Positions 3,075 to 57,928 of a stretch of DNA of 64,000 nucleotides are shown one piece after another. Location: assembly GCA_951406725.2 (NCBI GenBank), contig OX597817.1, forward strand, positions 130,572,001-130,636,000, written 5' to 3'. The DNA is from Octopus vulgaris (taxonomy: Eukaryota). The notes beneath the pieces were generated by a model that made no database searches, was not told the origin of the DNA, and saw only the letters and a list, made by a program, of their open reading frames with translations. Made by a program: the position numbers and the translations under genes. How positions within the stretch are numbered: the first letter of the stretch is position 1; each line of letters opens with the position of its first letter.

Positions 3075-3075
<1 letters not shown>

Positions 3076-3530
3076 AAATCAGATATCAGAAAGCAGAACC
3101 AAAATCGAAGTCGATCAACATCAATGGAAATTGCAGCTGTGATACCAGTGCCGGTGACAAGTAAGCGAACCATCTGATCGTGGCCGTTGCCAGCGCTGCC
3201 CCGACTGACCTCTGTGCCGGTGGCATGTAAAAAGCACCATCTGATTGTGGCCGTTGTCAGCCTCGCCTGGCCCCAAGTATGGTGGCACGTAAAAAGCACC
3301 ATCCGTCCGTGGCCGTTTGCCAGCCCCGTCTGGCACCTGTGCGGGTGGCACGTAAAAAGCACCCACTACACTCACGGAGTGGTTGGCGTTAGGAAGGGCA
3401 TCCAGCCGTAGAAACACTGCCAGATCAGACTGGGCCTGATGCAGCCTTCTGGCTTCCCAGACCCCAGTTGAACCATCCAACCCATGCTAGCATGGAAAGC
3501 GGACGCTAAATGATGATGATAATGATGATT
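3075..3530 (+). mobile_element. 5'-truncated RTE LINE copy (3' UTR)
   Basis: Near-identical to 39245-39669, including three gtaaaaagcacc modules and a (TGA)n tail. Confidence 0.92.
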
Positions 3531-11194: not shown

Positions 11195-11840
11195 TCATCA
11201 TCATCATTATCGTTTAACGTCTGTTTCTATACTGGCATGGCTTAGACTGTTTGACTGGAACTGCTAAGCTGGAGAGTTGTCTTATATTTGCTTGGTTTCT
11301 ATAGCTGGATGCCTTTCCTAATGCCAATCACCTCAGAGTGTACCAGGTGCCCTTAATGAGTCACCAGCACGGGTGCCCTTAACGAGTCACCGGCACGGGT
11401 GCCCTTAACGAGTCACTGGCACTTGACATGGAAGCCTTGAACATGTCATCAGCGTTGCCGGGGGGAGCGGTAGGGGTGGTACCACTTTTGGGTCTGCTGT
11501 ACGCAATATTCGTTTTTTTGTGGGGTCTGGGGGCAGCAAACGGAAGGGCTTCCCAGGGCAGCACACACACTCTAGCTACACAAGTACATGGATGACATTG
11601 ACATGTCATCAGCACTGGCTATGATTATGATTCAAATAAGCTTGACGTGTCTTCAAAGCACAGCAATTTGCCAAAAGTGTCAGGCACTTGTCATTGACTC
11701 CATGAGACTCAACATCCGAAGATCATACTTCACCACCTCATCCTATGTTTTCCTGGATCTACCTCTTCCACCGGTTCCCTCCACAGTTAGAGATTGAGAC
11801 TTCTTTATGCAACTGTCTTCGTCCATATGCATCACATGGC
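11195..11840 (-). mobile_element. RTE LINE 3' fragment containing a 3x26-bp tandem repeat and a 147-bp insert
   Basis: (TGA)n tail at ~11195-11212 and RTE C-terminal coding remnant (...TVEGTGGRGRSRKT) at ~11690-11840. Confidence 0.8.
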
Positions 11841-20374: not shown

Positions 20375-20795
20375 ATCATCATCATCATCGTTTAACGTCC
20401 GCTTTCCATGCTAGCATGGGTTGGACGATTTTGACTGAGGGCTGGCAAACCAAATGGCTGAACCAGGCTCCAATCTTGATTTGGCAGAGTTTCTACAAGT
20501 GGATGCCCTTCCTAACGCCAACCACTCCGAGAGTGTAGTGAGTGCTTTTTACGTGCCACTGGCACGGGGGCCAGTCTGGCGGTACTGGCAACGACCTCGC
20601 TCGAATACTTTTACACATGCCACCTGCACAGGTGCCAGTAAGGTGACTTTGGTAACGATCACGCTCGAATGGTGTCCTTTTACGTGCCACTGGTACGGAA
20701 GCCAGTTGGCTGCTCTGGCAACGATCACGCTTGGATGGTGCTCTTGGCACCCAACTAGCACGGGCACAAGTGCCAGTAAGGCGACGCTGGTAATA
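20375..20795 (-). mobile_element. RTE LINE 3' UTR copy
   Basis: Reverse complement of the RTE 3' UTR with several internal modules. Confidence 0.88.
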
Positions 20796-36281: not shown

Positions 36282-39200
36282 AGGTAATATGGGTAGATAA
36301 GGTAATAGAGGTAATCAGAGTATGTGACAGAATACTTAAGATTAGATTAGTGTTTCATCATGGATTAGCAACCATTATATCATTATATCGGCCTATGCTC
36401 CTCAGCTGGGGCTACCCGATGGACAGAAAGACCGATTCTATGACACTCTGCTGCAGACTACCTCGTTGACGAACGACAGAGACCTTCTCTTTGTGGCTGG
36501 TGACTTCAATGGTCACGTTGGACGACATGCTGGGGGCTTCGATGGTGTACATGGAGGCTATGGCTATGGTTCCTGCAATGAGGAGGGAACCAGGCTGCTG
36601 GAGTTCTGCGATGCAAATAATCTTATGGTTTGCAACACTAACTTCAGGAAACCTACCAGCCACCTAGTCACCTACCGATCGGGCCAACATACCAGCCAAA
36701 TTGACTATATCCTTGCCAGGCAAAGGGAGAGCTGGCTGCTTATAAATGCCAAAACCTTCCCATGCAAGGAATGTACCCCGCAACATAGACTGGTAGTTAG
36801 TGACTTTAGGATCAGGACTAAGAGGACAACCAGAAGATGACCAACATGGAGAAGAAGGATCTGGAAGCTTAAAGATCCTGCGAATGGACAGAGATTTAGG
36901 GACATGTTACTTGAAGCTTTTGACGGAGTAGAAGGGGATAGAGTATCTCATGGGGTAGAAGGCAACTGGACGTTTCTAAGGGACAACCTGCTGAGAGCCA
37001 CTGACCAGATCTGCGGCTGGTGCAAAGTCCCCTCTCATCCCAAGGTAACGTGGTGGTGGAACAATGTTGTAGACAGGGCTATTAGAGAAAAGAGACAGGC
37101 TTGGAAGGACTGCAAGTATGGTGGTAGCAGGGAATTGTATCAGGCTGCCAAAAGGGAAGCTAAGAGACAGGTCTATCTAGCCAGAGGGGAAGCAGATAAG
37201 AAAAAAATTGCCAATGTTCTGCGCCGTGAGGACCAAATACTGGAGGTGTTTCGTGTTGCAAGACAGTGTGTGAGAGAGAATTGTGATGTGGTAGGAGAGA
37301 AGTGTGTTCGCATTGGAAGATGGTTCACTTGCGCTAAATGAGGATGCAAAGAGAGAGGTCTGGAGACGCCACTATGAAAGGTTGCTGAATAAAGAAAATG
37401 AATGGGATAAAGGGAGTCTGCCAAATGTAGACCCAACAGAGGGACCAGCTATCCGAGTTGACAGTTCCTTGGTAGTTAAGGCAATTAGAAGCATGAAGAC
37501 AGGGAAAGTCCCAGGCCCATCAGGAATCACTGCAGAGATGCTCAAAATATCTGGTAGTGTCGGCTATAGCCTAGTCACTCGTATAGTTAATCAGGTGATA
37601 CACGAAGGAGTCATACCCAATGACTGGTGTAGCAGCATAATAGTCAACTGCTACAAAGGTAAAGGTGATGCCCTAGATACAAATAATTACAGAGGTATCA
37701 AGCTGTTGGATCAGGTAATGAAGGTTATGGAGAGGGTCATAGCCCAACTAATTAGAGAGAAAGTTAGTTTAGATGAGATGCAGTTTGGGTTCTGCCAGGG
37801 AAAAGTACCACTGATGCTATATTCCTGGTAAGGCAGCTGCAGGAGAAATACCTAGCCAAAGATAAGCCCCTGTACCTGGCTTTTGTTGACATGGAGAAAG
37901 CCTTCGACAGGGTCCCTTGATCCCTTATCTGGTGGTCAATGAGGAAACTAGGGATAGATGAATGGTTAGTGAGAGCTGTGCGAGCCATGTACAGGGATGC
38001 TGCTAGTAAGGTGAGGGTTGGCAACGAGTACAGTGAAGAATTCCGGGTAGAGGTAGGGGTCCACCAAGGCTCAGTCCTCAGCCCCCTCCTATTTACCATA
38101 GTCCTCCAGGCAATAACGGAGGAATTCAAGACAGGATGCCCCTGGGAGCTCCTCTATGCTGATGACCTTGCTCTAATTGCTGAGTCTCTATCAGAACTGG
38201 AGGAGAAGTTTCAGGTGTGGAAGCAAGGATTAGAATTGAAGGGCCTTAGAGTCAATCTAGCTAAAACCAAAGTCCTAATAAGTAGGAAGGTAGACAAATC
38301 ACAGATGCCTTCAGGTAGATGGCCCTGCTTAATCTGTAGAAAAGGTGTAGGTAGAAACTCTATAAGATGCACCAAGTGTAAGCTATGGACACATAAGAGG
38401 TGCAGCAATGTCAAAGGGAGGCTAACTAGGAAGATAGTTTTTGTATGTGGCAGATGCTCAAGAGCAATAAACACTGAAAATGCTCTGAGACCAACTTCTG
38501 CCACTTTCCAGGGAGAAAAACTAGAAATAGTTGATAGTTTCCATTACCTAGGTGACCAAGTCAGTAGCGGGGGTGGGTGTGCTGAAAGTGTAAATGCTAG
38601 AGTAAGAATAGCTTGGGCAAAGTTCAGAGAGCTCTTGCCTCTGCTGGTGACAAAAGGCCTCTCGCTCAGAGTAAAAGGCAGACTGTATGACGCGTGTGTA
38701 TGGACAGCCATGCTACATGGCAGTGAAACATGGGCCATGACGGCTGAGGATATGCGTAAGCTCGCAATAAATGAAGCCAGTATGCTCCGATGGATGTGTA
38801 ATGCCAGTGTTCATACTCGACAGAGTGTAAGTACCTTGAGAGAAAAGCTGGACCTAAGAAGCATCAGATGTGGTGTGCAAGAGAGACGTTTGCGCTGGTA
38901 TGGTCATGTGGCAAGAATGGATGAAGATAGTTGTGTGAAAAAGTGCCACATCCTAGCGGTTGAGGGAACCTGTGGAAGAGGCAGACCCAGGAAAACCTGG
39001 GACGAGGTGGTGAAGCACGACTTTCGAACTTTAGGTCTCACTGAGGAGATGACTAGAGACCGAGACCTATGAAAGTATGCTGTGCGTGAGAAGACTCGGC
39101 AGGACTAGTGAGACCATTACCCGTGGCCTCTACCGGGGATGTAGCCAGTCGACTTATGCATGCTTTTCCTTCTTGGGACACAAAACTCCACTTGTGAAGA

Positions 39201-39669
39201 CCCGTTGAGGCAAGTGGAAATCGAAATCAAAATCAAAATCAAATCAAATCAGAAATCAGAACTAAAATCGAAGTCGATCAACATCAATGGAAATTGCAGC
39301 TGTGATACCAGTGCGGGTGACAAGTAAGCGAACCATCCGGCCCCAACTGGCCTCCGTGCCAGTGGCACATAAAAAGCACCATCCGTTCGTGGCCATTGCC
39401 AACCTCGCCTGGCCCCCGTGCCGGTGACACGTAAAAAGCACCATCCGATCGTGGCTGTTTGCCAGCTCCGTCTGGCACCTTTGCAGGTGAAACGTAAAAA
39501 GCACCCACTACATTCACGGAGTGGTTGGCGTTAGGAAGGGCATCCAGCCGTAGAAACACTGCCAGATCAGACTGGGCCTGATGCAGCCTTCTGGCTTCAC
39601 AGACCCCAGTTGAACCGTCCAACCCATGCTAGCATGGAAAGCGGACGCTAAATGATGATGATGATGATG
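36282..39669 (+). mobile_element. RTE-clade LINE, 5'-truncated within the endonuclease, disrupted (APE, RT, PHD finger, 3' UTR, (TGA)n tail)
   Basis: GDFNGHVG, QIDYIL, NYRGIKLL, GVHQGSVLSPLLF, LLYADDL and RLRWYGHV spread over ORFs 36194-39072 with stops and frameshifts; 600-bp 3' UTR. Confidence 0.96.
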
Positions 39670-39735
39670 TATATATGTGTATATGTATATATATATATGT
39701 GTATATATATATGTATATATATATATATATATATA

Positions 39736-41915
39736 ACTTTTTAGACACCCTGTTAAAACCACTCCTCAAACATGTCAAAAGCTATATAAGGGACGACTTA
39801 GATATGCTCAATCACCTACCGAATACTATAAACAAAAACACCATACTGGTATCCTTCGATGTAGTCAACCTCTACTCCAATATCCCCCACAACCTAGGAC
39901 TAGAGGCAATCCAATTCTGGCTAGAGAATCACGCCAACGAACTACCACACCGCATCAAAAAAGAATTTGTGATAGAAGGGGTTAAATTCATCCTGGAAAA
40001 TAACTTCTTCGCCTTCAATGACAACTTCTACCGACAAAAATCGGGGACTGCGATGGGTACACGAATGGCCCCCTCCTTTGCCAACCTAGTCATAGGATAC
40101 CTAGAGATCAGTCTGTATCGTAAGGTTCTAGAAAGATATGGCAGCCCTTTCTCCATCTACATAGAAAACAACTGGAAGAGATATCTAGATGACTGTTTCA
40201 TCCTTTGGCATAAAAATATAGAAAAACTCATAGAATTCCAGGAAATTTTAAACGGACTGGACGTAAACATCCAATTCACGATGGAATATAGCCAGCAACA
40301 ACTCCCCTTCCTCGATATCCTCATTAAGAAAGCTAATAATATAATAGAAACAGACATATACTATAAGCCTACAGACTCTAAGCAATATCTTCCATTCAAT
40401 TCATGCCACCCCAGACACACCAGGATGAATATCCCCTTCAATCTAGCAAAAAGGATATGCACTATAGTCTCTAATGCAAACACCAGAGACACACGACTAC
40501 AAGAACTAAAAGATACCCTTATCACCAGGAACTATCCACCTTCACTTATTGACAAGTGCATTCAACGTGCCCTTCAACTTAACATCAAGGAACTGAGACA
40601 TCCCAAATCAAAGAAAAACTTACAACCAAAAGCCTTACCATACATCTCCACACACAACCCTCTCAATAACGAAGCCTTCGACACCATCCTCCACAACATA
40701 CCCCTCCTAAAAAAGACCACAGAATGAACACAATCCTCCAAACACACACGATCATAAAAAGCAAAAGACAGCCTAGATCCATGAAAAGTCTCCTAACACA
40801 AGCCCGAATTCACTCTTCAACACAGAAGCCGACAGTAAAAAAATGTGGAAGACCCAATTGCGGGATATGCGACTATCTAATTGAGGGATCAGAGTTCTCC
40901 TTCAAACAGGGACAACGGTTTACAGTGAAAAGCAACTTCACATGTGCTTCGGAGAACCTAATATACTCACTAACCTGCTCCGGGTGTCAAGAGCAGTACA
41001 TAGGCCAAACAAAAAATGGTTTGCGTAAACGAATGGCCCTGCACAGATCCCAGATAAAAATTCCTCAAAACAGAAAAATAGCTTTTAGCCAACACATAGA
41101 TACTTGCGCCAACAAAAAAACACCAAACTTCAGGATTTTCCCCCTCTACCAATTTAGGGACGATACAACCTCGAGACAACGAATAAGTAAAGAAAATCTC
41201 TTTATTACAAAATACAAGCCACTTCTTAACGGGTCTACGACAAACAATTAATATACCTCAACTTTAGAATAAAAGAAATATATACACACACAAATATTAC
41301 ACTCCATAGAATCCATTACTAATCAGCCCCATCACAGCTATACTTTCACCCATTCATATTCTCCCTTCTCTGTTTTTTTCTTCTTCTTCTTCCTCTTCTT
41401 CTTCATCATCATCATTATCATCATCATCGTCGTCATCATCATCACCACCATCTTCTCCTTCTCCTTCTTCTTCATCATCATCATCATCAACATCGTCATC
41501 TTCTTCTTCTTCTACTTCTCCACCTTCCACCCCTTAACCTTGTCACTAATGTCTTTCAGTATAACGCCTACGCAAATTCCATAAACAATTCCTGAATTGA
41601 ACTGCGACTACTGTCAGCCACTGACCATTCAAAATACGACCATTAAGGCATTCCCAGATTTCCCCACCCCCTCTCCACATCAGCCTCCTTATTCTTCACC
41701 TATCCTACCAAGAACTCAAAACGACCTCGAACACACAAGTGCAAACAAGGGAGTCAGAGAAAGGCAGAATGCTACTTATATCTGAACACTACTACAGAAA
41801 TATTCTTTTAAAAAAACTTTTCTTCTAATTTTTCTAAATTTAATTATTTAATCGTTACAGTTGAAAAGGTCTCAAAATGACCGAAACCGGTACTGAAAGA
41901 TTCACTATAAAATTA
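39736..41915 (+). mobile_element. Penelope-like element (Neptune-like), 5'-truncated: RT plus GIY-YIG endonuclease, one frameshift near 40722
   Basis: SFDVVNLY, QKSGTAMGT, RYLDD, FLD..I, YYKPTD and SCHP in 39736-40727; Cys-rich linker and NLIYSLTC..CQEQYIGQT in 40724-41251; hammerhead-like motif downstream. Confidence 0.95.
41858..41895 (+). ncRNA. Degenerate minimal type I hammerhead ribozyme (Penelope pLTR type)
   Basis: cag-UUGAAAA-ggtc-tcaaaat-gacc-GAAA-ccgg-UA-ctg; stems intact, core differs from CUGANGA at 2 positions. Confidence 0.6.
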
Positions 41916-42857: not shown

Positions 42858-43057
42858 TCATCATCATCATCATCATCATCGTTTAACGTCCGTTCTCCAT
42901 GCTAGCATGGGTTGGACGGTTCGACCGGGGATCTGGGAAGCCAGAAGGCTGCACCAGGCTCCAGTCTTATCTGGCAATGTTTCTACAGCTGGATGCCCTT
43001 CCTAACGCCAACCACTCCGTGAGTGTAGTGGGTGCTTTTTACGTGCCACCTGCACAG
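42858..43057 (-). mobile_element. RTE 3'-end insertion inside the CR1-group ORF2 endonuclease
   Basis: Separates LLNVRGLVKPTN from MGKIPYLRDL...TETHL; matches 39478-39669 in reverse. Confidence 0.93.
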
Positions 43058-43059
43058 AA

Positions 43060-45810
43060 ATGGGTAAAATTCCTTACCTTAGGGACTTGAGCACAAGCAA
43101 CCATGCAATATGCATAGCGCTGACTGAAACGCACCTGTCAAGCAGTATAGCAGATGCAGAAATACACATACCGAAGTATACTGTTTTTCGGTCGGACAGG
43201 AAGGAAAGAACTCATGGTGGGGTTGCCCTGTACGTCCGTGAAGATGTCACACCCATAGTACTGTTGACACACTCAAACTCAGTCTGTGACACACTGATAG
43301 TACACATGAAACAACCGAAAATAGTAATATGTGTCACATATCGGCCACCAGACACCCCTAGTCATGAAGGAGTGTTTGAAGATAGCCTCAGAAGAATAGA
43401 AGAAGTCCTGGACAAACTGGACCAGGGTAACACCATTCTACTGCTGGGAGATTTTAACCTTCCGAAAGTCAAATGGCCAGATGGCCATCTCCTCCCTGGA
43501 ATGACATCACTTGAACAGAGACAGACAGAGTCCTTGTTGGCTCTCACACGCAAGTTTTTCATGGAGCAAGCAGTGCTTTGGCCAACAAGAGGTGAGAATG
43601 TCTTGGACCTCTGTTTCACAAGCAACCCGATGCTCATCCACAACATAATGGTAACACCAACAATTCTCTCAGATCACAACTTAGTAGAGGTAATGATATA
43701 TGGTATGAGAGAGTTAGTTGAGACGCAGCCATTAGAAAATACCACAGGCCTATCCAGTCTAAACTTCCATAAGGCAAACTGGAAGAAGATCAACGAAGAG
43801 ATCCGAAAACATGACTGGAGTGACTTCATCACCACACAAGACACCAACACACATTTCCAACATTTCATGACAACAATACAGAACATATGCCATAAGTTTG
43901 TCCCGGAGAAAAAAGCCAGCGGGCATAGGAACGTTATTCCCAGAGACAGGAAAATACTTATGAGGCGAAGAGCTAAGCTCTCGAAGCAACTGAATGCACG
44001 GCAGAGAAACAATGAGGGACTCCACCTGAAACTTTTTGAAACGGAAACTGCACTCAAACTTTCCTATGAGAGGGAGAGGGCAGAGAGAGAAGCCAGGGCC
44101 ATAGAGAATATTAAAACAAACCCTAAAGCCTTCTTTAAATTTGCGAAAGAAACCACCTCGGTACACTGCAAGATTGGCCCACTCTTTGATAAAAAGGGCT
44201 CTCTAACTGAGGACCCCCAAGGGATAAGTGAAATACTAAAGGAACAGTATAAAAGTGTGTTCACATCCCCTCTGGGGCACATGCAAATCACAAACCCAGA
44301 AGTTTTCTTTGATGCCACAACACTCCAAAACCAAACAACAACCATCGACCACATAGACATAACAGAGAGGGATGTAATATCTGCCATAGAAGAAATGAGA
44401 ATAAACTCAGCTGCTGGACCAGATGGATTCCCAGCAGTCCTCCTAAAAACATGCAGGCATGCCCTAGCGGGACCACTGAAGAAGCTCTTCAGTGGTTCCT
44501 TGGCTAACGGTAAACTGCCCAGGGCGCTAAAAGAAGGCACCATATGCCCTATCCACAAAGGAGGGAGTAGAGCAGAGGCCAAAAACTACAGGCCAGTCTC
44601 CCTGACGTCACACATAAGTAAGGTCATGGAACGAATCATCAGAAAAAAACTGATCACGTTCCTCGAAGAAACTAACCGTCTCACTGACACACAGCATGGC
44701 TTTCGCCCAGGAAGAAGCTGCCTTACGCAGCTGTTACAACACTACGACTGGGTACTGAAACAACTACTGGATCGCTCACAGGTAGATGTGGTATATCTCG
44801 ACTTTGCGAAGGCCTTTGACAAAGTCGACCACGGAGTGATATGTCACAAATTACTCAGACTCGGCATAACAGGAAAAGTAGGTGAGTGGATACATGACTT
44901 CCTGAAGGACAGAAGCCAGATGGTTGCAGCCAATGGAGCCCTCTCGGGAAAGACACCAATAGCAAGCGGGGTGCCACAGGGCACAGTCTTGGGACCCTTG
45001 CTGTTTTTGGTGGCGCTCTCTGACATGCCCTTGGTAGCACAAACAACATCCCTCACTAGCTATGCTGATGACACAAAGGTAGCACAGGCAATCAAAAACC
45101 CAGCTGATGCTGACCTTTTACAACAAGATCTGGATGCCATATACAAATGGGCTGAAGACAACAACATGCAATTTAATGCTGGTAAATTTCAAGCCTTACA
45201 ATATCAAGCTGTAAACACATATACATTACAACACAACTATACTGGTCCAGGAGGGATCGAAATCCCAGTATCGAAATCAATACGGGACCTGGGGATAGAC
45301 ATGAGTGACGATGCATCTTTTTCTTCACACATCGCGAAGGTGGCGACAATGTGCAGACGACTCACTGGCTGGATCCTGAGGACATTCCGGACAAGAGACT
45401 GCGAGACCATGTTGACACTATGGAGGACATTTGTCCTAAGCCGCCTGGACTACTGCTCCCAACTGTGGTCACCGCATAGTGTCAAACTAACCACAGAGCT
45501 TGAGACAATCCAAAGACATTTCACCAAGAGGATTTCCACCATGAAAGAAAAGAACTATTGGGAGAGGCTTAGGGAACTCAATTTGTACTCCTTGGAACGA
45601 AGACGAGAGAGATATGCAGTGATATACATATGGAAAATCCTGGAGGGACTAGCACCAAATTTTGGAATTGAGAGCTGTTCCAATCCCCGTACAGGACGTC
45701 ACTGTGTGGTGCCAAAGGTCCCGTCTTCCACATCCAGGGTAAGGAGCAGATACTGTAATAGCCTGGGGTTCAGGGGCCCTCAGCTGTTCAAAAACTGCCA
45801 AGAAAACTAA
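43060..45810 (+). CDS. CR1-group LINE ORF2 (APE endonuclease plus reverse transcriptase)
   Basis: 916-aa open frame with complete RT motifs; the true C-terminus appears to continue after a frameshift near 45790 (LPRKLRDL..FKKHLDKLL..IPDEP). Confidence 0.95.
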   Translation: MGKIPYLRDLSTSNHAICIALTETHLSSSIADAEIHIPKYTVFRSDRKERTHGGVALYVREDVTPIVLLTHSNSVCDTLIVHMKQPKIVICVTYRPPDTPSHEGVFEDSLRRIEEVLDKLDQGNTILLLGDFNLPKVKWPDGHLLPGMTSLEQRQTESLLALTRKFFMEQAVLWPTRGENVLDLCFTSNPMLIHNIMVTPTILSDHNLVEVMIYGMRELVETQPLENTTGLSSLNFHKANWKKINEEIRKHDWSDFITTQDTNTHFQHFMTTIQNICHKFVPEKKASGHRNVIPRDRKILMRRRAKLSKQLNARQRNNEGLHLKLFETETALKLSYERERAEREARAIENIKTNPKAFFKFAKETTSVHCKIGPLFDKKGSLTEDPQGISEILKEQYKSVFTSPLGHMQITNPEVFFDATTLQNQTTTIDHIDITERDVISAIEEMRINSAAGPDGFPAVLLKTCRHALAGPLKKLFSGSLANGKLPRALKEGTICPIHKGGSRAEAKNYRPVSLTSHISKVMERIIRKKLITFLEETNRLTDTQHGFRPGRSCLTQLLQHYDWVLKQLLDRSQVDVVYLDFAKAFDKVDHGVICHKLLRLGITGKVGEWIHDFLKDRSQMVAANGALSGKTPIASGVPQGTVLGPLLFLVALSDMPLVAQTTSLTSYADDTKVAQAIKNPADADLLQQDLDAIYKWAEDNNMQFNAGKFQALQYQAVNTYTLQHNYTGPGGIEIPVSKSIRDLGIDMSDDASFSSHIAKVATMCRRLTGWILRTFRTRDCETMLTLWRTFVLSRLDYCSQLWSPHSVKLTTELETIQRHFTKRISTMKEKNYWERLRELNLYSLERRRERYAVIYIWKILEGLAPNFGIESCSNPRTGRHCVVPKVPSSTSRVRSRYCNSLGFRGPQLFKNCQEN

Positions 45811-50380: not shown

Positions 50381-51368
50381 TTAAGTTTGACTGGGAGCTT
50401 ACCACTTGCATGAAAGCTCTGAAAAAGAAGCTGTAGTGGTTTTGCAAGGGCTCGTTTGCACGATTTGAGAAGGATTGCTGGGAATCCATCAGGTCCAGCA
50501 GTTGAGTTTGTGTCAAACTCATCTATGGCCAGTGTGATATCATCATCTTCAATGTTGATGTACTCAATTTTTGCCTCTTTGGCCGCAGGTAAAGTGGCAA
50601 AGAATTCTTCTGGGTTGCTTACTTGCCTGTTTCCTAGAGGTGTAGTGAACACACTTTGGAACTGTTCATTCAGTGTTTCACTTATCCTCGTGGTATTTCC
50701 TGTGAGAGAGCCATCTTTTTGGAAGAGAGGTCCTATTCTCTGGTGTACTGTGGCTGTCTCTTTGGCAAACTTAAAGAAAGCTTTAGGGTTCGACTTTATA
50801 TTTTCTATTACCCAAGCTTCTTTATCTGCTCTCTCTCCTTTTCATGGGACTGATGCAGACTTTTCTCAATTTCTATTAGCATTCTCTCGAGCTGAGACTT
50901 CTCACCACTTTTGATGTGCCTGCTCAGGCGGTTCGCACTCCTTGTCCGTCGTCTCATAAGAATCTTCCTTTCTCTAGGGATCCTGTTTTTGTGTGTGCTG
51001 GCCCTGCACACTGGGACATATGTCACATATGGCTTGTATTATGGACATGAAGTGTTTATGTTTCATGTTAATGTCCGGTGTGGAGAGTCATTTAGGCCAA
51101 TCCTGTTTGAGGATCTCTTTCTCGATCAACTTCCAATTTGCTTTATGAAAGTTTAAGTTGGAGAGATGGTGGATGCTTCGTATAGGCTGTGTGTCTGTGG
51201 GAGCTTTTGGTCCATACATAGACAGCTTTATTATGTTGTGATCCGAGATCATTGTCGGCATCACTTTAACATTATGGATAATAACCATATTGTTTGTGAA
51301 GCAGAGATCCAGTATATTATCTGCCCTTGTTGGTTGCAGCACTATTTTCTCCATGAAATAGGCATTTG
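50378..51368 (-). mobile_element. Internal fragment of a CR1-group LINE (end of APE to the pre-RT linker), related to the 41915-46047 element
   Basis: PTRADNILDLCF, SDHNII, NFHKANW, RIPRERKILMRRR and AGPDGFPAILLK align with the 916-aa ORF2. Confidence 0.92.
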
Positions 51369-51400
<32 letters not shown>

Positions 51401-51401
51401 T

Positions 51402-51839
51402 CTGAACAGCAGATTCAAAATAAATTAAAACAAATCGAAGTTGCTTTTAAATTAATCGATAAACACTTTGATAAACTGAGATGTGTTTTCTCTTTGAACA
51501 TATCGCCGGCGCAACAACAACAACTTCAGCAGCATCAACAACAACAACCTCAGTGGCAACAACAACAACAGCAGCAACAACAACAGAATGAACCACTCCT
51601 TGATTCATCTACAATGGACAATTTGTTAAAGGAAATGATTGACTCCCCAGTCACCAGGGTCTCACAGCAGGAAGCACCATCCCTTCCTTTCACTGCCCTA
51701 GTAGCTCAATCATCATCACTGTCAACATCATCTCTTCTGTCTACTACTACTATTACTACAAACACTATCAAACCAAAAACATCTTTGTTTACCACTATCT
51801 CATGGAATCAATCATCATCACTGTCAACATCTCTTCTGC

Positions 51840-51871
<32 letters not shown>

Positions 51872-54800
51872 GCTGCTACTTCAAGGAATCTACCTCCTAC
51901 TATTTCCACCGGTCACAAAGGTCGACAAAACCTCAACAAACTATCATCCACACCTCTCACAACTCACACACGCACCTACACACCCACTCAAAACCCCATC
52001 ATTTGCCGTTATTCTCTCCACCATAGATTATGCACTAATAGAGACTGCAAATTCACCCATTTACCTGAGACTAAATGCACTATCCCCACAAACTACAAAA
52101 GCCACCACCATAATACATACTCTATTACAACACCACAACCACCAATATCTCAAACAAGGAATCCCCAAATCTGCCACTATTCGCAGCGAGACAGATTGTG
52201 TTTGCACAGGGATTGTCCCTTTACCCATCTCCTAGGGACTCGTCGGACAAATCATAATAAAAATAAAAACACCTACGACTCATATAGAAATAACCACTCA
52301 TATAAAAATAACCACAACCACAGTTACCTACAGTTCCCTAGACAGGAAACTTCTTCTTCCAATTTTTTAGCTATAATAAATCTAGCAAAAGAACTGGAAA
52401 AAAACATCCAAGCTATCACCCACCACACTCACACCACTGCACATGCCATTAAAAAGCAATCAAATAAACAAAACACCAAAACAATTAAAAACCATCCACT
52501 CTCGCCTCAACATTTTTGCTTAATACCCAATGCATCAGCCCTTCCGCCAATACTCAAAAATGGAAGATAAAATTCCTGGAGGACTGGGTTGATGCCCATC
52601 CAAACCACATCCCTTTCTTCGTCCTCACTGAAACCCATCTTAGTAACCTCTACTTGGAAGCCGAGGTGAAAGTTAAAAATTTCAAAGCCATTCGTGCTGA
52701 CAGAAGAAAGGGTGGGACTGCCATTTATGTTCATGATTCATTCTCAACAGAAGCTATGAACATATTTTCAAATGGATACTGTGAAGCAGTCGCTGTATTC
52801 AGTCAAACCAACAACTTAACAGTAGTTGGGCTCTACAGACCACCCCAAACGCCCCTACCATGCTTCAAGGAATGCCTCAACAACATAAAGTGTTTCATTC
52901 AGCAGTGTCAACCTGACAACATTTTAATGATGGGAGACTTCAACCTTCCCAGGGTTGACTGGTCTACAAACAGTCTTCCGCCAGGTTCTTCTGTCTCAAC
53001 CCCTGACAGGGAGGCAGTGGAATCGCTTCTTGACTTCATGATTTCTTCCTGTCCCAACTGGTGCTCGAACCAACGAGATGTCACAAAAATGTCTTAGACT
53101 TAATTTTCAGCAATCACACTGATACTATCCACAATATTGCAGTGGAGAAAACTCTACTCTCTGATCATGACATGGTTCTCTGTGATCTGAGATTTCACCG
53201 GCCAAAATGCAAAACAAATGTCATCCCTCCTGTTCATCCATTTGACACTATGGATTTCCACAATGCAAACTGGGAAGTGATCAGTAATGATCTTGCACAA
53301 GTCGATTGGTCCTTCATGCACACATACACACCCACTAACATCAAAAACATCAAAAAGTCCTGGCAGTCATTTGTAGACACCATTACGAACATATGTGCAA
53401 AACACACCCCATCAAGATCTGCAAACAAATCTAAGTGTCGAATCCCTAGAAATAGAAAATCTCTCATCAGGAAAATTAAAAGAATTAACAAAAAAATAAA
53501 CAAGCTGAAATACTGTCAACAGCAATATACCAACCTGACTGCCATCTCATAGCTAGAGATTAAAAAACATAAACTCCAAAACAACATGATGTCTATCATC
53601 AATAGTCAGAGAAGAGCTGAAGAGGCCTGGGCCATTGAGAAGATCAAACTCAATCCCAAAGTGTTCTTTTCATTTGCAAAAAAAACACTGAGTCACTGGT
53701 TCTACTGTTGGCCCTCTGATTGATGAAAATGGTACTCTTCAAGACAATTCCAAAACCATGGGAGAGATATTGCAGAAACAATATTGCTCTGTTTTCGACA
53801 ATCCTGATATGACTGATCTGGGCTGTATCAGTGATGTTATTCCCCAATACACTTTATCGGACATAACCTTTGGTGCTCCTGATGTCTTAGCAGCAATAAA
53901 GGAAATGAAGAATAATTCAGCAGTAGGTCCCGATAGGTTCCCTGCTTGTGTCTTGAAGATGTGTCAACACCAACTTGCACCCCCTCTAGCCAATCTTTGG
54001 CGGAACTCACTGGATGCTGGATATATACCAGAAGACCTTCTATCCCAGTCTGTTGTCCCAGTTTTCAAAAAAGGAAACAAATCGCTTGCCATGAATTACC
54101 GTCCAATCTCACTCACCTCTCATATCATTAAGGTATTTGAGAGAGTGCTGAGATCGCGTATGACTCACTTCCTTGAGAGTCATAATATGCTGAACTCCAA
54201 CCAGCATGGATTCTGTAATGGAAGAGATTGTTTGACGCAGCTACTGCATCATTTTGATGACATTTTGAGAGCCTTGGTAGAGTGCTCCAATACTGATGTC
54301 ATCTACCTTGATTTCAGCAAGGCCTTTGACAGGGTTGATCATAAGATCCTTTTGAGAAAGCTGTCCAATATTGGTGTCACTGGAAAGCTGCTGCAGTGGA
54401 TCAAGTGCTTCCTGTCTAACAGAACCCAACATGTAGTCGAAGGAGTCAAATCCAGCCCAGCCAAAGTCAGTAGTGGTGTCCCACAAGGCACTGTGTTGGG
54501 CCCACTTCTCTTCATCATCTATATTAATGATATTACTGACACCATCAAACACAGTAACATCAGAACCTTCGCTGATGATTCCAAGCTCCAGAAGGTCATC
54601 AATGGCGAGGATGACCGAATAAGCCTTCAGTCAGACCTACTGGCTGTTGTCCAATGGGTGGAAAAGAACAACATGTTGCTAAACGAAGACAAATTCGAAC
54701 TGATCCACTTTGGAAGGGAGGACGCTCTGAAACTCCCATAATCCCTTCCTTCTGGAGAAATTCTCATGGTGTCTAACATCATCAGAGACTTGGGAGTAAC

Positions 54801-55275: not shown

Positions 55276-56213
55276 ATTGTAAAACGCTGGCATCGTGAAT
55301 TCAAACATGGTCGGAACTTTGTGGAAACAGCTCCCAAATCTGGTCGCCCCCTTCTGCCATTGATGAGGCATCTGTTCGTCAAGTTGAGGCTGCCATTTTG
55401 GAAGATCGACGCATAACTATTCGCCAAATAGCCCATGAGGTCAAGACTAGTACCGGGTCTGTGGAAACTATCATTCATGACCATTTGCATATGGAAAAGG
55501 TGTCTGCCAGATGGATTCCCAGGTTGCTCACACCTTTCCATAAGCAAGAACGCGTCGATTGCGCGAGGATGAATTTGAAGATGTGCCAAGAAGATGAGTC
55601 AAAATTTTTCAAAAGACTGATTACACAGGATGAAACCTGGGTCCATCACTTTGATTCAGAGACCAAAGCTCAGTCAATGCAGTGGAAGCACCGTGACTCA
55701 CCCTCTCCAAAGCAGGCAAGGGTGCAACCCTCCGCTGGCAAGGTCATGCTCACAGTCTTCTGGGACCAGGACGGAGTAGTGATGACAGATTTCCTGGCAA
55801 AGGGTACCACAATTACAGGAGTCTATTATGCTTCACTTTTGAGGAAATTAAGAGAAGCTATCATAATCAAGAGGCGGGGCAAGATCAGCAAAGGCATTCT
55901 CCTGCAGGACAACGCTCCGATCAACAACTCGTGTGTCGCCAGATCAGAAGCACAGGCGTGCGGCTATGAACTGCACCCTCTGATTTTCACCTCTTCCCAG
56001 CCATGAAGTTGTTTTTGAAAGGAAAGCGTTTCCCAGATGATGCAGCCTTGATTTCTGAAGAAAAACGGTCTTCAGAGCTGCATCAAACAATGGGAGAAAT
56101 ACGTAACTCTGGGTGGTTCCTATGTAGAAAAAGACTAATAACTATGTCAAGTTTCGTTGCTCTACTACTATGGGAAGTGGGTCAGGGGCATTACTTATTG
56201 AACGCCTCTCGTA
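55273..56213 (+). mobile_element. mariner transposon (irritans/Hsmar2-like), 5' end missing, 3' TIR present
   Basis: SGRP, WIPRLL, ITQDETW, KVMLTVFWD, QDNAP and DFHLF motifs; ends ggcattacttattgaacgcctctcg-TA. Confidence 0.93.
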
Positions 56214-57928
56214 TGATGCCATATTCCTGGTTCGACAACTGCAGGAGAAATACCTGGCTAAAGATAAACCCCTCTACATAGCTTTCATGGACTTGGAGAA
56301 AGCCATTGACAGGGTCGCCCGATCCCTTATCTTGTGGGCGATGCGAAAACTGGAGATTGATGAATGGTTAATAAGGGCTGTACAGGCCTTATACAGAGAG
56401 GCCATCAGCAAGGTTAGGATTGACAATGAGTATAGTGAAGAATTCCGGGTAGAAGTAGGGGTCCACCAAGGTTGTCCTCAGTCCTCTTTTATTCATCCTA
56501 GTCCTCCAGTCAATAACAGAGGAATTTAAGATGGGTTGCCCCTGGGAGCTCCTCTATGCTGATGACTGGCCCTCATAGCAGTATCACTACCGGAACTAGA
56601 AAAGAAATTGCGAGTGTGGAATCTAGGTTTAGAATCAAAAGGCCTTAAAGTCAATGTAGCAAAGACCAAAGTTCTAGTAAGTAGGAAGTCAAACACACCA
56701 CACACCCATTCAGGTAGGTGGCCCTGCTCAATCTGTAGAAAATGTGTAGGTAGAAACTCCATAAGATGTACCCAGTGTAAGCTATGGACACATAAGAGGT
56801 GCAGCACCATCAAAGGAAAATTAACCGAGAAGATAGCTTTCGTGTGCTTCAGATGCACAGGGCTAATAGACACCATTGATACTCAGAAAACAGATTCCAT
56901 TACACTCCTGGGGGAGAAACTAGAAGTAGTTGATAGTTTCTACTACCTAGGTGACCAAGTTAGTAGCGAGGGTGGATGCTCGGAGAGTGTTACCAGTAGA
57001 ATAAGAATAGCCTGGGCAAAGTTTAGAAAGCTCCTACCCCTACTGGTGACAAAGGATCTCTCGCTCAGAGTGAAAGGTAGATTGTACGATGCATGTATGC
57101 AAACTGTCATGCTTCACGGTTGTGAAACATGGGCTGTGACTGCAGAGGACATGCGTAAGCTTGAAAGAAATGAAGCTAGCATGATCTGCTAGATGTGTAA
57201 TGTCAGTGTGCATACACGACAAAGTGTAAGTGCCCTGAGAGAAATGCTGGACATAAGAAGCATTGGATGTGACGTGCAAGAGAGACGTCTGCGCTGGTAT
57301 GGTCATGTACTATAGATGGATGAGGAGAGATGTGTGAAGAAGTGCCACTCCCAAACAGTTGGGGTAGAGGTAGACATGGGATGAGGTGGTCAAGCATGAC
57401 CTTTGAACATTGGGTTTCACAGAGGCAATGACAAAAGACCGAGACCTCTGGAGATATGCTGTGACTGCGAAGACCCGACAAATAACGTGAGTTCATGGCT
57501 GTTTCCTGCACCAGCTTCACATAGAAGCCCCAGCCCACCCAAAGTGCCCTGGATTGCAGGACAGCCTGCTGGGCTTACCTTGGATCATAAGGCAATTTGC
57601 TGTGCTTGAGGAGACCTATTGAGTCAAGTACATCAACATCAAAAAAATCAAATAGAAATTGCAGTTGTGATACCTGTGCCGGTGGCATGTAGAAAGCACC
57701 ATCCGAATGTGGCCGATGCCAGAGACGCCTTGACTGGCTTCCGTGCCGGTGGCATGTAAAAAGCACTCACTACACTCACGGAGTGGTTGGCGATAGGAAG
57801 GGCATCCAACTGTAGAAACATTGCCAAATCAGACTGGAGCCTGGTGCAGCTTCCTGGCTTCCCGAACCCCGGTCGAACTGTCCAACACATGCTAGCATGG
57901 AAAACGAACATTAAACGATGATGATGAT
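56214..57928 (+). mobile_element. Second large RTE LINE copy (RT, PHD finger, 3' UTR), disrupted
   Basis: Colinear with 37812-39669; (GAT)n tail. Confidence 0.95.

Follow-up and report, generated by a model that had tools for sequence, protein, structure and literature searches.

A tandemly repeated 26-nt module, probably folded as a compact pseudoknot, in the 3′ UTR of octopus RTE retrotransposons

What might a retrotransposon gain from a 26-nt sequence that is repeated in tandem downstream of its stop codon? The question is raised by a 64,000-nt stretch of the 2.8-Gb genome of the animal Octopus vulgaris (contig OX597817.1, positions 130,572,001 to 130,636,000; hereafter, the window). The repeated module can be drawn as an H-type pseudoknot in which positions 1-5 (CGUGC) pair with positions 11-15 (GCACG) to form stem 1, position 6 is a single-base loop (L1), positions 7-10 (GGUG) pair with positions 23-26 (CACC) to form stem 2, and an A-rich second loop spans stem 1.

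The array at 39355-39505 is located between the stop codon (39106-39108) and the (TGA)n tail (39653-39669) of a decayed, 5′-truncated LINE copy on the plus strand. The upstream ORF (36346-39108) is truncated and frameshifted, retaining a remnant of an APE endonuclease, a reverse transcriptase domain (Pfam RVT_1), a PHD-like finger and, in translation, an RTE-type C-terminus that runs to the natural stop. We take this ORF to belong to the RTE clade from its domain order and C-terminal motifs, rather than from a tree. Its closest named relatives are proteins of Octopus vulgaris (87%) and O. bimaculoides (83%), followed by those of hydroids, lancelet and clam. Position after a single APE-RT ORF with an RTE-type C-terminus, together with the short tandem repeat at the end, bears out the assignment of the array to an RTE 3′ UTR by an earlier, sequence-only reading of the window. 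The PHD-like zinc finger (38326-38457) is inserted after the reverse transcriptase core and is common to many hydroid, lancelet, clam and metagenome relatives. In octopus RTE loci (L192-L205) the 5′ region is long and pyrimidine-rich, and inspection by eye of this region, about 1 kb upstream, revealed an intron-like GT ... pyrimidine tract-AG arrangement just before the endonuclease.

The 3′ UTR of this copy is about 545 nt long (39109-39652), and the distance from stop to tail ranges from 371 to 1138 nt among 56 ORF-joined copies. Its 5′-most module (39310-39334) is degenerate, with both stems damaged; the master sequence at this position carries AACC instead of CACC in three lineages. Two internal modules follow, one (39355-39380) with mismatches of the CpG-decay type at pairs 7-26 and 1-15, which confirms an uncompensated mismatch already noticed there, and one (39417-39442) with a 5-11 mismatch. 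A spacer hairpin (TGCCAG/CTGGCA, 39460-39477) is predicted within the 62-nt period. The terminal module (39480-39505) is the best kept between lineages and bears three damaging changes in this copy; thus, contrary to the original proposal, the full knot is intact in none of the three modules. Beyond the array lie a small hairpin with a variable 3-nt loop (39511-39523), at whose place many related elements have a predicted hairpin composed of different letters, a unit containing the core AGGAAGGGCATCC (39523-39563), and a terminal stem-loop (39616-39647) that resembles, by eye, the short 3′ UTRs of distant relatives (L245, L301, L312) and is likely to be an ordinary priming signal.

Several further copies occur in the window: a 5′-truncated sister copy (3075-3527) with modules at 3213, 3275 and 3338, the tail of a second ORF-joined copy (57675-57928) with modules at 57675 and 57742, a minus-strand sister copy (20375-20745) with a module at 20566, and, in an older copy on the minus strand, a triplication at 11346-11422. 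Other elements surround them. A remnant of a Penelope-like reverse transcriptase and GIY-YIG domain lies right behind the array-bearing tail (39633-41251), followed by an APE-RT frame of 934 codons (43006-45810), another, broken APE-RT LINE (51362-54741) and a mariner transposase remnant (55299-56006).

The repeat is real and abundant. An exact search of the genome finds 95,113 occurrences of the intact degenerate module, compared with none of the reversed pattern, and 33,116 occurrences of the terminal module together with its spacer; a fuzzy search returned 825 modules versus 2 in reversed sequence. The window itself contains 15 matches with at most 6 substitutions, among them every module reported earlier at 39355, 39417, 39480, 3213, 3275, 3338, 57675, 57742 and 20566 (minus). 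The spacing of about 62 nt given for these modules agrees with the 62-67 nt found in the window, but the proposed one to four modules per element is too few, as elements carry 1 to 10, mostly spaced 61-68 nt apart. Module sequences were collected from 2.04 Mb of octopus DNA, some of it retrieved by searches that required a match, yielding 1301 modules (440 terminal), and by-place counts refer to the 875 modules found in the window and in stretches taken by position, 60 of 160 of which were placed near known matches. Even between lineages with more than 20% difference in their tails, the terminal module is retained. A search of Rfam at E≤10 gave 7 matches, none of which came near the gathering score, and the viral contigs searched contained neither the module nor a related ORF. 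The module is also present in sequencing-run contigs of four organisms, a record of presence only, and no RNA run was among the sequencing runs listed as carrying it. Variation in the surrounding layout was observed as well: an older lineage (L010, L062, L108, L111, L135) duplicates a whole 100-nt unit consisting of module, hairpin and AGGAAGGGCATCC unit rather than the module alone, and a different short element (L015, L021, L063, L097) shares the AGGAAGGGCATCC unit and the terminal stem-loop while lacking the 26-nt module.

The module can also multiply by itself. Spacings of 24-28 nt separate 37 neighboring module pairs at 25 loci, and the bare 26-mer forms 88 exact head-to-tail junctions elsewhere in the genome, some in kilobase arrays with match spacings that are multiples of 26. 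These junctions support the view that the 26-mer is a discrete unit and indicate that its amplification occurs in DNA; tandem growth of the modules is therefore in part a DNA-level process. Apparent kilobase minisatellites of the bare 26-mer, judged from match spacing, lie at G000:C30:16523586-16525178, C26:4013317-4015682 and C5:47346671-47347639. The triplet at 11346-11422, which had been offered as a sign of a discrete module, does exist, but is no evidence for the fold: it is a private triplication of a decayed 26-mer, genome-wide its variant has no match beyond these three units, and it has two stem-1 mismatches.

Is the module under selection to fold? Because individual copies decay neutrally, modules were grouped by their flanking sequences, which produced 39 types with at least 4 members (10 terminal and 29 internal) that comprise 566 of the 1301 modules, the remaining 735 falling outside any type. 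The module finder tolerated at most 7-8 mismatches and chose loop length so as to fit CACC, and the conservation figures that follow are therefore inflated. Pair 1-15 occurs as C-G, U-G and U-A and, in one lineage, as A-U, the A1+T15 combination being observed 13 times versus 2.7 expected; pair 5-11 occurs as C-G, U-G and U-A, the T5+A11 combination being seen in at least three flank contexts and 22 modules altogether (among the 875 by-place modules, 19 versus 13.2 expected; p=0.051). CpG decay accounts for neither double change. These double-sided changes (C-G to A-U and C-G to U-A) are modest and the core pairs are invariant. Pair 2-14 fails in 2 of 10 terminal types, pair 1-15 is often open in modules with C at position 11, whose stem 1 shrinks to as few as 3 bp, and stem 1 is broken without repair in some internal masters (9 copies). 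On balance, stem 1 very probably forms, and the covariation between subfamilies for which the sequence-only reading proposed a test has modest support for this stem.

Position 6 behaves quite differently from the stem around it. In 264 terminal modules it is C in 139, T in 63, A in 48 and G in 14, and transversions affect 62 of 264 modules at this site versus 1-8 of 264 at eleven stem positions; at the corresponding place in the window (39485), contigs from the sequencing runs of four organisms show C, G and T beside A. A free position 6 speaks against a plain 6-bp hairpin in the lineages concerned. Because G10 remains available as a partner for base 6 in 36 of the 39 types, such a hairpin, with a predicted energy of −8.6 versus −6.0 kcal/mol for the 5-bp form, is excluded for some lineages only. 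The apparent extension of stem 2 to GGGUG/CACCC at 3338 had been regarded as preserved pairing. It is not covariation, since nearly all terminal modules (157 of 161) have C27, irrespective of the identity of base 6.

The case for stem 2 is built from conservation rather than from compensatory change. In the 10 terminal types all 30 of 30 cells of the GUG/CAC core are paired, as are 81 of 87 cells in the 29 internal types, and CACC stands as a conserved island, with departures in 0-3 of 29 types versus 4-9 of 29 for the loop end and 3-18 of 29 for the spacer, even as the loop preceding CACC takes 13 forms. Two register shifts point in the same direction. In older lineages a C occupies position 11 and could form a pair with G22, and G22 is present in 81 of 88 C11 modules versus 75.5% of 662; in 9 of 16 copies of one type GUG is displaced by a single base, with 6 sister copies breaking GUG/CAC. 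A genome-wide search for a lineage with compensated changes at 9/24, 8/25 or 10/23 found none. Double changes at these pairs number 26, 156 and 129, versus 95,113 intact modules, and are scattered over backgrounds; they are about as many as independent decay would give, with expected values of about 94, 29-100 and about 95 that are rough because they derive from small local counts of single changes. The AGUG/CACU variant in the minus-strand sister copy, previously read as preserved pairing, is a chance double change: A7+T26 is observed 16 times versus 13.6 expected among the 875 by-place modules. Stem 2 is broken without compensation in internal masters (GAGG in 6 copies, GGCG in 5, and AACC in 35 copies of three types), and 3 of 10 terminal types lack pair 7-26. 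Taken together, conservation, the free position 6 and the register shifts make it somewhat probable that the module folds as the modeled H-type pseudoknot, in which stem 1 is marked by non-CpG double changes and stem 2 is likely and lacks a compensated lineage in the octopus genome.

The closest competitor to this interpretation is that the module contains a conserved motif with a hairpin alone, within a slippage-prone repeat that has been amplified neutrally, the apparent stem 2 arising from the presence of two GTG and two CAC words. The absence of stem-2 compensation and the decay of internal modules in master sequences speak for this explanation, as do the 88 head-to-tail junctions, some of which belong to kilobase arrays of the bare 26-mer, and the origin of the 11346 triplet after insertion. 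The spacer of the 62-mer begins, by eye, with module-like letters. Moreover, when the 540-nt UTR was shuffled, a perfect Watson-Crick knot of the same geometry appeared by chance in 35 of 1000 sequences. It also counts against the pseudoknot reading that the whole tail folds no better than its shuffles (z −0.77). We nevertheless consider the hairpin-only alternative unlikely; the retention of the terminal module across such divergent tails, the freedom of position 6, the CACC island and both register shifts speak against it.

If the module is a structured element, it is not one on which the clade generally depends. An alignment of 30 proteins was used to find 79 metagenome loci and 20 loci from a genome collection that encode related RTEs, and the 26-nt module is present in 0 of these 99 loci (309,596 bases). 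The 3′ UTRs of the relatives are mostly about 50-150 nt long, with a stem-loop and a microsatellite at their end (65 loci with an ORF end were inspected); some of them resemble, by eye, the final 50 nt of the tail in octopus. Because these relatives move without the module, a role as the basic RT-recognition signal of the clade, one of the functions initially suggested, is excluded. The loci L300-L313 are animal- or plant-type RTE LINEs in records labeled bacterial or archaeal, probably reflecting host contamination.

Comparison with the relatives also reveals a feature that the sequence-only reading overlooked, namely that the array abuts a unit known from the 5′ UTR of related RTEs. The AGGAAGGGCATCC unit is located about 210-230 nt before the endonuclease in two relatives, L227 and both copies in L301, and its core occurs also in short worm-like elements, close to where these seem to start. 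It is absent from three other loci that include the start of the endonuclease: L304, which is apparently truncated, and L255 and L297, which are distant. Among octopus copies, 24 of 29 lack the core in the 1.5 kb that precede the endonuclease query, a search that stops short of the true 5′ end, and 5 of 29 have an upstream match, which in 4 of 5 lies beyond the end of the shared sequence. Because the unit occupies the 5′ UTR in relatives, the octopus tail is likely to consist of a 5′-UTR-type cassette that has moved to the 3′ end, joined to an ordinary terminal stem-loop, with the 26-nt array in front. The AGGAAGGGCATCC unit is possibly a second knot: its inner three pairs hold in 18 of 18 families and hardly vary, its crossing stem is paired in 62.5% of cells, and the count of double changes was reached by 28 of 500 shuffles, and as a candidate for demonstrated structure it was set aside.

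The same make-up, a 5′-UTR piece joined to a 3′ signal, characterizes bipartite short elements that depend on RTEs, in which pieces of the RTE 5′ UTR are retained (PMC5786205 and PMC7245038, available portions). The likeness extends to the distribution of the AGGAAGGGCATCC core, which is found in an octopus short element and in the worm-like short elements. In contrast to the bipartite short elements, the bipartite unit of octopus is the tail of the protein-coding LINE itself and is preceded by a 26-nt array. The AGGAAGGGCATCC core does not appear in the supplement text of PMC5786205, in which figure S4 is a picture, and the available text describes no structure for these pieces. Among sequences given there, the unrelated 5′-UTR pieces of BovB/EbuSINE2, CoeSINE4/RTE-4_PPo/HaSE2, RTE-3_PM/WALLSI and IdioSINE2/RTE-7_PM each resemble, by eye, an H-type knot that shows double-sided changes. 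A squid SINE piece from the same source shares CGTG...CACG followed by an A-run with the octopus module, by eye and as a lead only.

We favor, at a probability of roughly 0.42, the interpretation that the 26-nt unit is a repeated part of the LINE tail, likely a compact H-type pseudoknot, which likely provides the element's own protein with an additional grip beside the 5′-UTR-type cassette. An ancestral element would have acquired this cassette behind its stop codon and joined it to the usual terminal stem-loop, much as in the bipartite RTE-dependent short elements. Each module would fold through stem 1 and probably stem 2 (GUG/CAC plus 7-26 or 11-22), with the A-rich loop lying across stem 1. 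The terminal module may have been kept because ORF2p binds the structured region and retains the RNA until priming by the terminal stem-loop, which presumably starts reverse transcription here as in relatives. Upstream modules would have arisen by slippage or unequal exchange and, being partly redundant, would decay.

The proposed function as an auxiliary ORF2p-binding fold is inferred by analogy with R2Tg, whose protein binds a 3′-UTR pseudoknot (PMC12222951, in part). In each case a non-LTR retrotransposon would carry a small pseudoknot in its 3′ UTR, that of octopus being predicted. The R2Tg pseudoknot, however, is single, lies within the last 67 nt and has been shown to be needed (PMC12222951), whereas the octopus module is repeated, is located 150-340 nt before the tail and is missing from relatives. 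It is thus not a terminal element that starts target-primed reverse transcription in the manner of R2, there being a separate terminal stem-loop in octopus and relatives that lack the module.

It is more doubtful that the module is a coremin-like barrier to the 5′-3′ exonuclease Xrn1, which would leave a stable short RNA, comprising cassette and tail, from decaying LINE or host transcripts for copying in trans. In its layout the module is nearer to Watson-Crick coremin xrRNAs (xrRNA-WCC: Hit1, Hit2 and SPlV5; the BNYVV coremin) than to luteoviral frameshifters. As in the available descriptions of those RNAs (PMC10321173, PMC6546385), the outer pairs are C-G, G-C and U-A (CGU/ACG), the loop end G-G-N-G pairs with a C-led strand that follows U and an A-run, the stems adjoin with no intervening base, and a hairpin follows downstream within a 3′ UTR. 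The first hairpin, of 5 bp (3-4 in C11 lineages) and with outer pairs as in BNYVV, falls within the 3-5 bp of coremins (PMC6546385), and the tandem copies in a 3′ UTR also accord with a barrier. Unlike these coremins, which have a YGAD, YGNNAD or GGNG tetraloop with an essential first base, the octopus module has a five-base loop, N-GGUG, whose first base (L1) is free, as well as one more pair, a longer spacer and a LINE as host. In the coremins examined, the L1 base is essential and pentaloops mostly fail (PMC10520033, in part), although those with five-pair stems and longer spacers retain partial activity (PMC6546385, PMC10321173). The next hairpin is predicted to begin at a varying, usually short distance: of 166 terminal copies, 104 have the first predicted pair after the module at offset 5 and 34 at offset 0, and most internal ones have it at 3-9. 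The BWYV knot, of similar size, does not stall Xrn1 (PMC10321173), and class 3 xrRNAs are larger and need motifs for which the octopus module has no room (PMC11702639, in part).

A barrier of this type makes a prediction for the genome, since insertions copied from Xrn1-trimmed RNAs should begin at the 5′ edge of a module. An initial set suggested a hotspot of 5′ truncation, with 19 of 108 ends at −4 to +1 of the module (p=0.008), which was lost after a strict junction filter dropped element-like flanks (138 of 239) and ambiguous junctions (61 of 239, the two sets overlapping). Clean junctions at the module 5′ edge number 8 of 71 versus 6.9 expected, and 2 of 27 versus 2.6 in a held-out set, a comparison of low power; short copies have no common start. 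The exonuclease blocking suggested earlier thus receives no support from the 5′ ends of copies. Less probable still is the more far-reaching scheme in which arrays of coremin-like Xrn1-resistant knots stand before the relocated cassette, so that transcript decay would leave a short, promoter-free RNA with both signals for copying by the LINE protein, every truncated copy would become a SINE, and the module would constitute a cellular xrRNA.

An equally improbable explanation operates in DNA rather than RNA, with the modules serving as repeated transcription-factor sites from the relocated 5′-UTR cassette that form an internal promoter or enhancer. Tandem promoter monomers exist in mouse L1 and 3′ promoters in HeT-A. 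The neighboring unit is of the 5′-UTR type, module conservation is largely that of plain sequence, and such a role has been proposed by Kojima for conserved pieces of RTE 5′ UTRs (PMC5786205, in part). The double-sided changes in stem 1, however, are unexpected for a DNA site, and the short copies without a common start also argue against it. A luteovirus-type frameshift or ribosome-stalling knot can be dismissed as highly improbable, because the module is located 200-400 nt behind the stop codon, its L1 base is free and a bridging base between the stems is absent in 38 of 39 types. The resemblance to the -1 frameshift pseudoknots of luteoviruses and poleroviruses (BWYV, PLRV) that was pointed out at the outset holds for shape, namely H-type, about 26 nt, short stems and an A-rich second loop (PMC5416846, in part). 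It does not extend to the L1 cytidine, required in the luteoviral knot for a base quadruple in stem 2 (PMC10321173), to the U12 bridging base of the PLRV knot (PMC5416846), or to a tandem array in non-coding sequence.

A search of the openly accessible literature returned no description of the module or of a pseudoknot in RTE UTRs. Among papers on octopus repeats, the available text of PMC9115989 does not describe the module, 'pseudoknot' and 'UTR' do not occur in PMC13282606, and 'pseudoknot' does not occur in PMC4758252. Precedents exist for structured LINE tails and for a 3′ pseudoknot in a non-LTR element; what is new is the set of 99 related RTE loci that lack the module, mostly with short 3′ UTRs, and the presence of the AGGAAGGGCATCC unit in the 5′ UTR of relatives. 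RTE elements are being made into gene-writing tools, for which UTRs matter for efficiency (PMC13708176, in part). The octopus tail offers a 26-nt candidate fold that is easy to probe, with the role of conserved RTE UTR pieces at stake. Xrn1 resistance, if true, would add a host retrotransposon to the viral and virus-associated RNAs in which xrRNAs have been described. More generally, the tail amounts to a natural experiment in which a 5′-UTR signal has been placed at the 3′ end, so that 5′-truncated copies would keep both signals, and this retention could help to explain the abundance of these tails in octopus.
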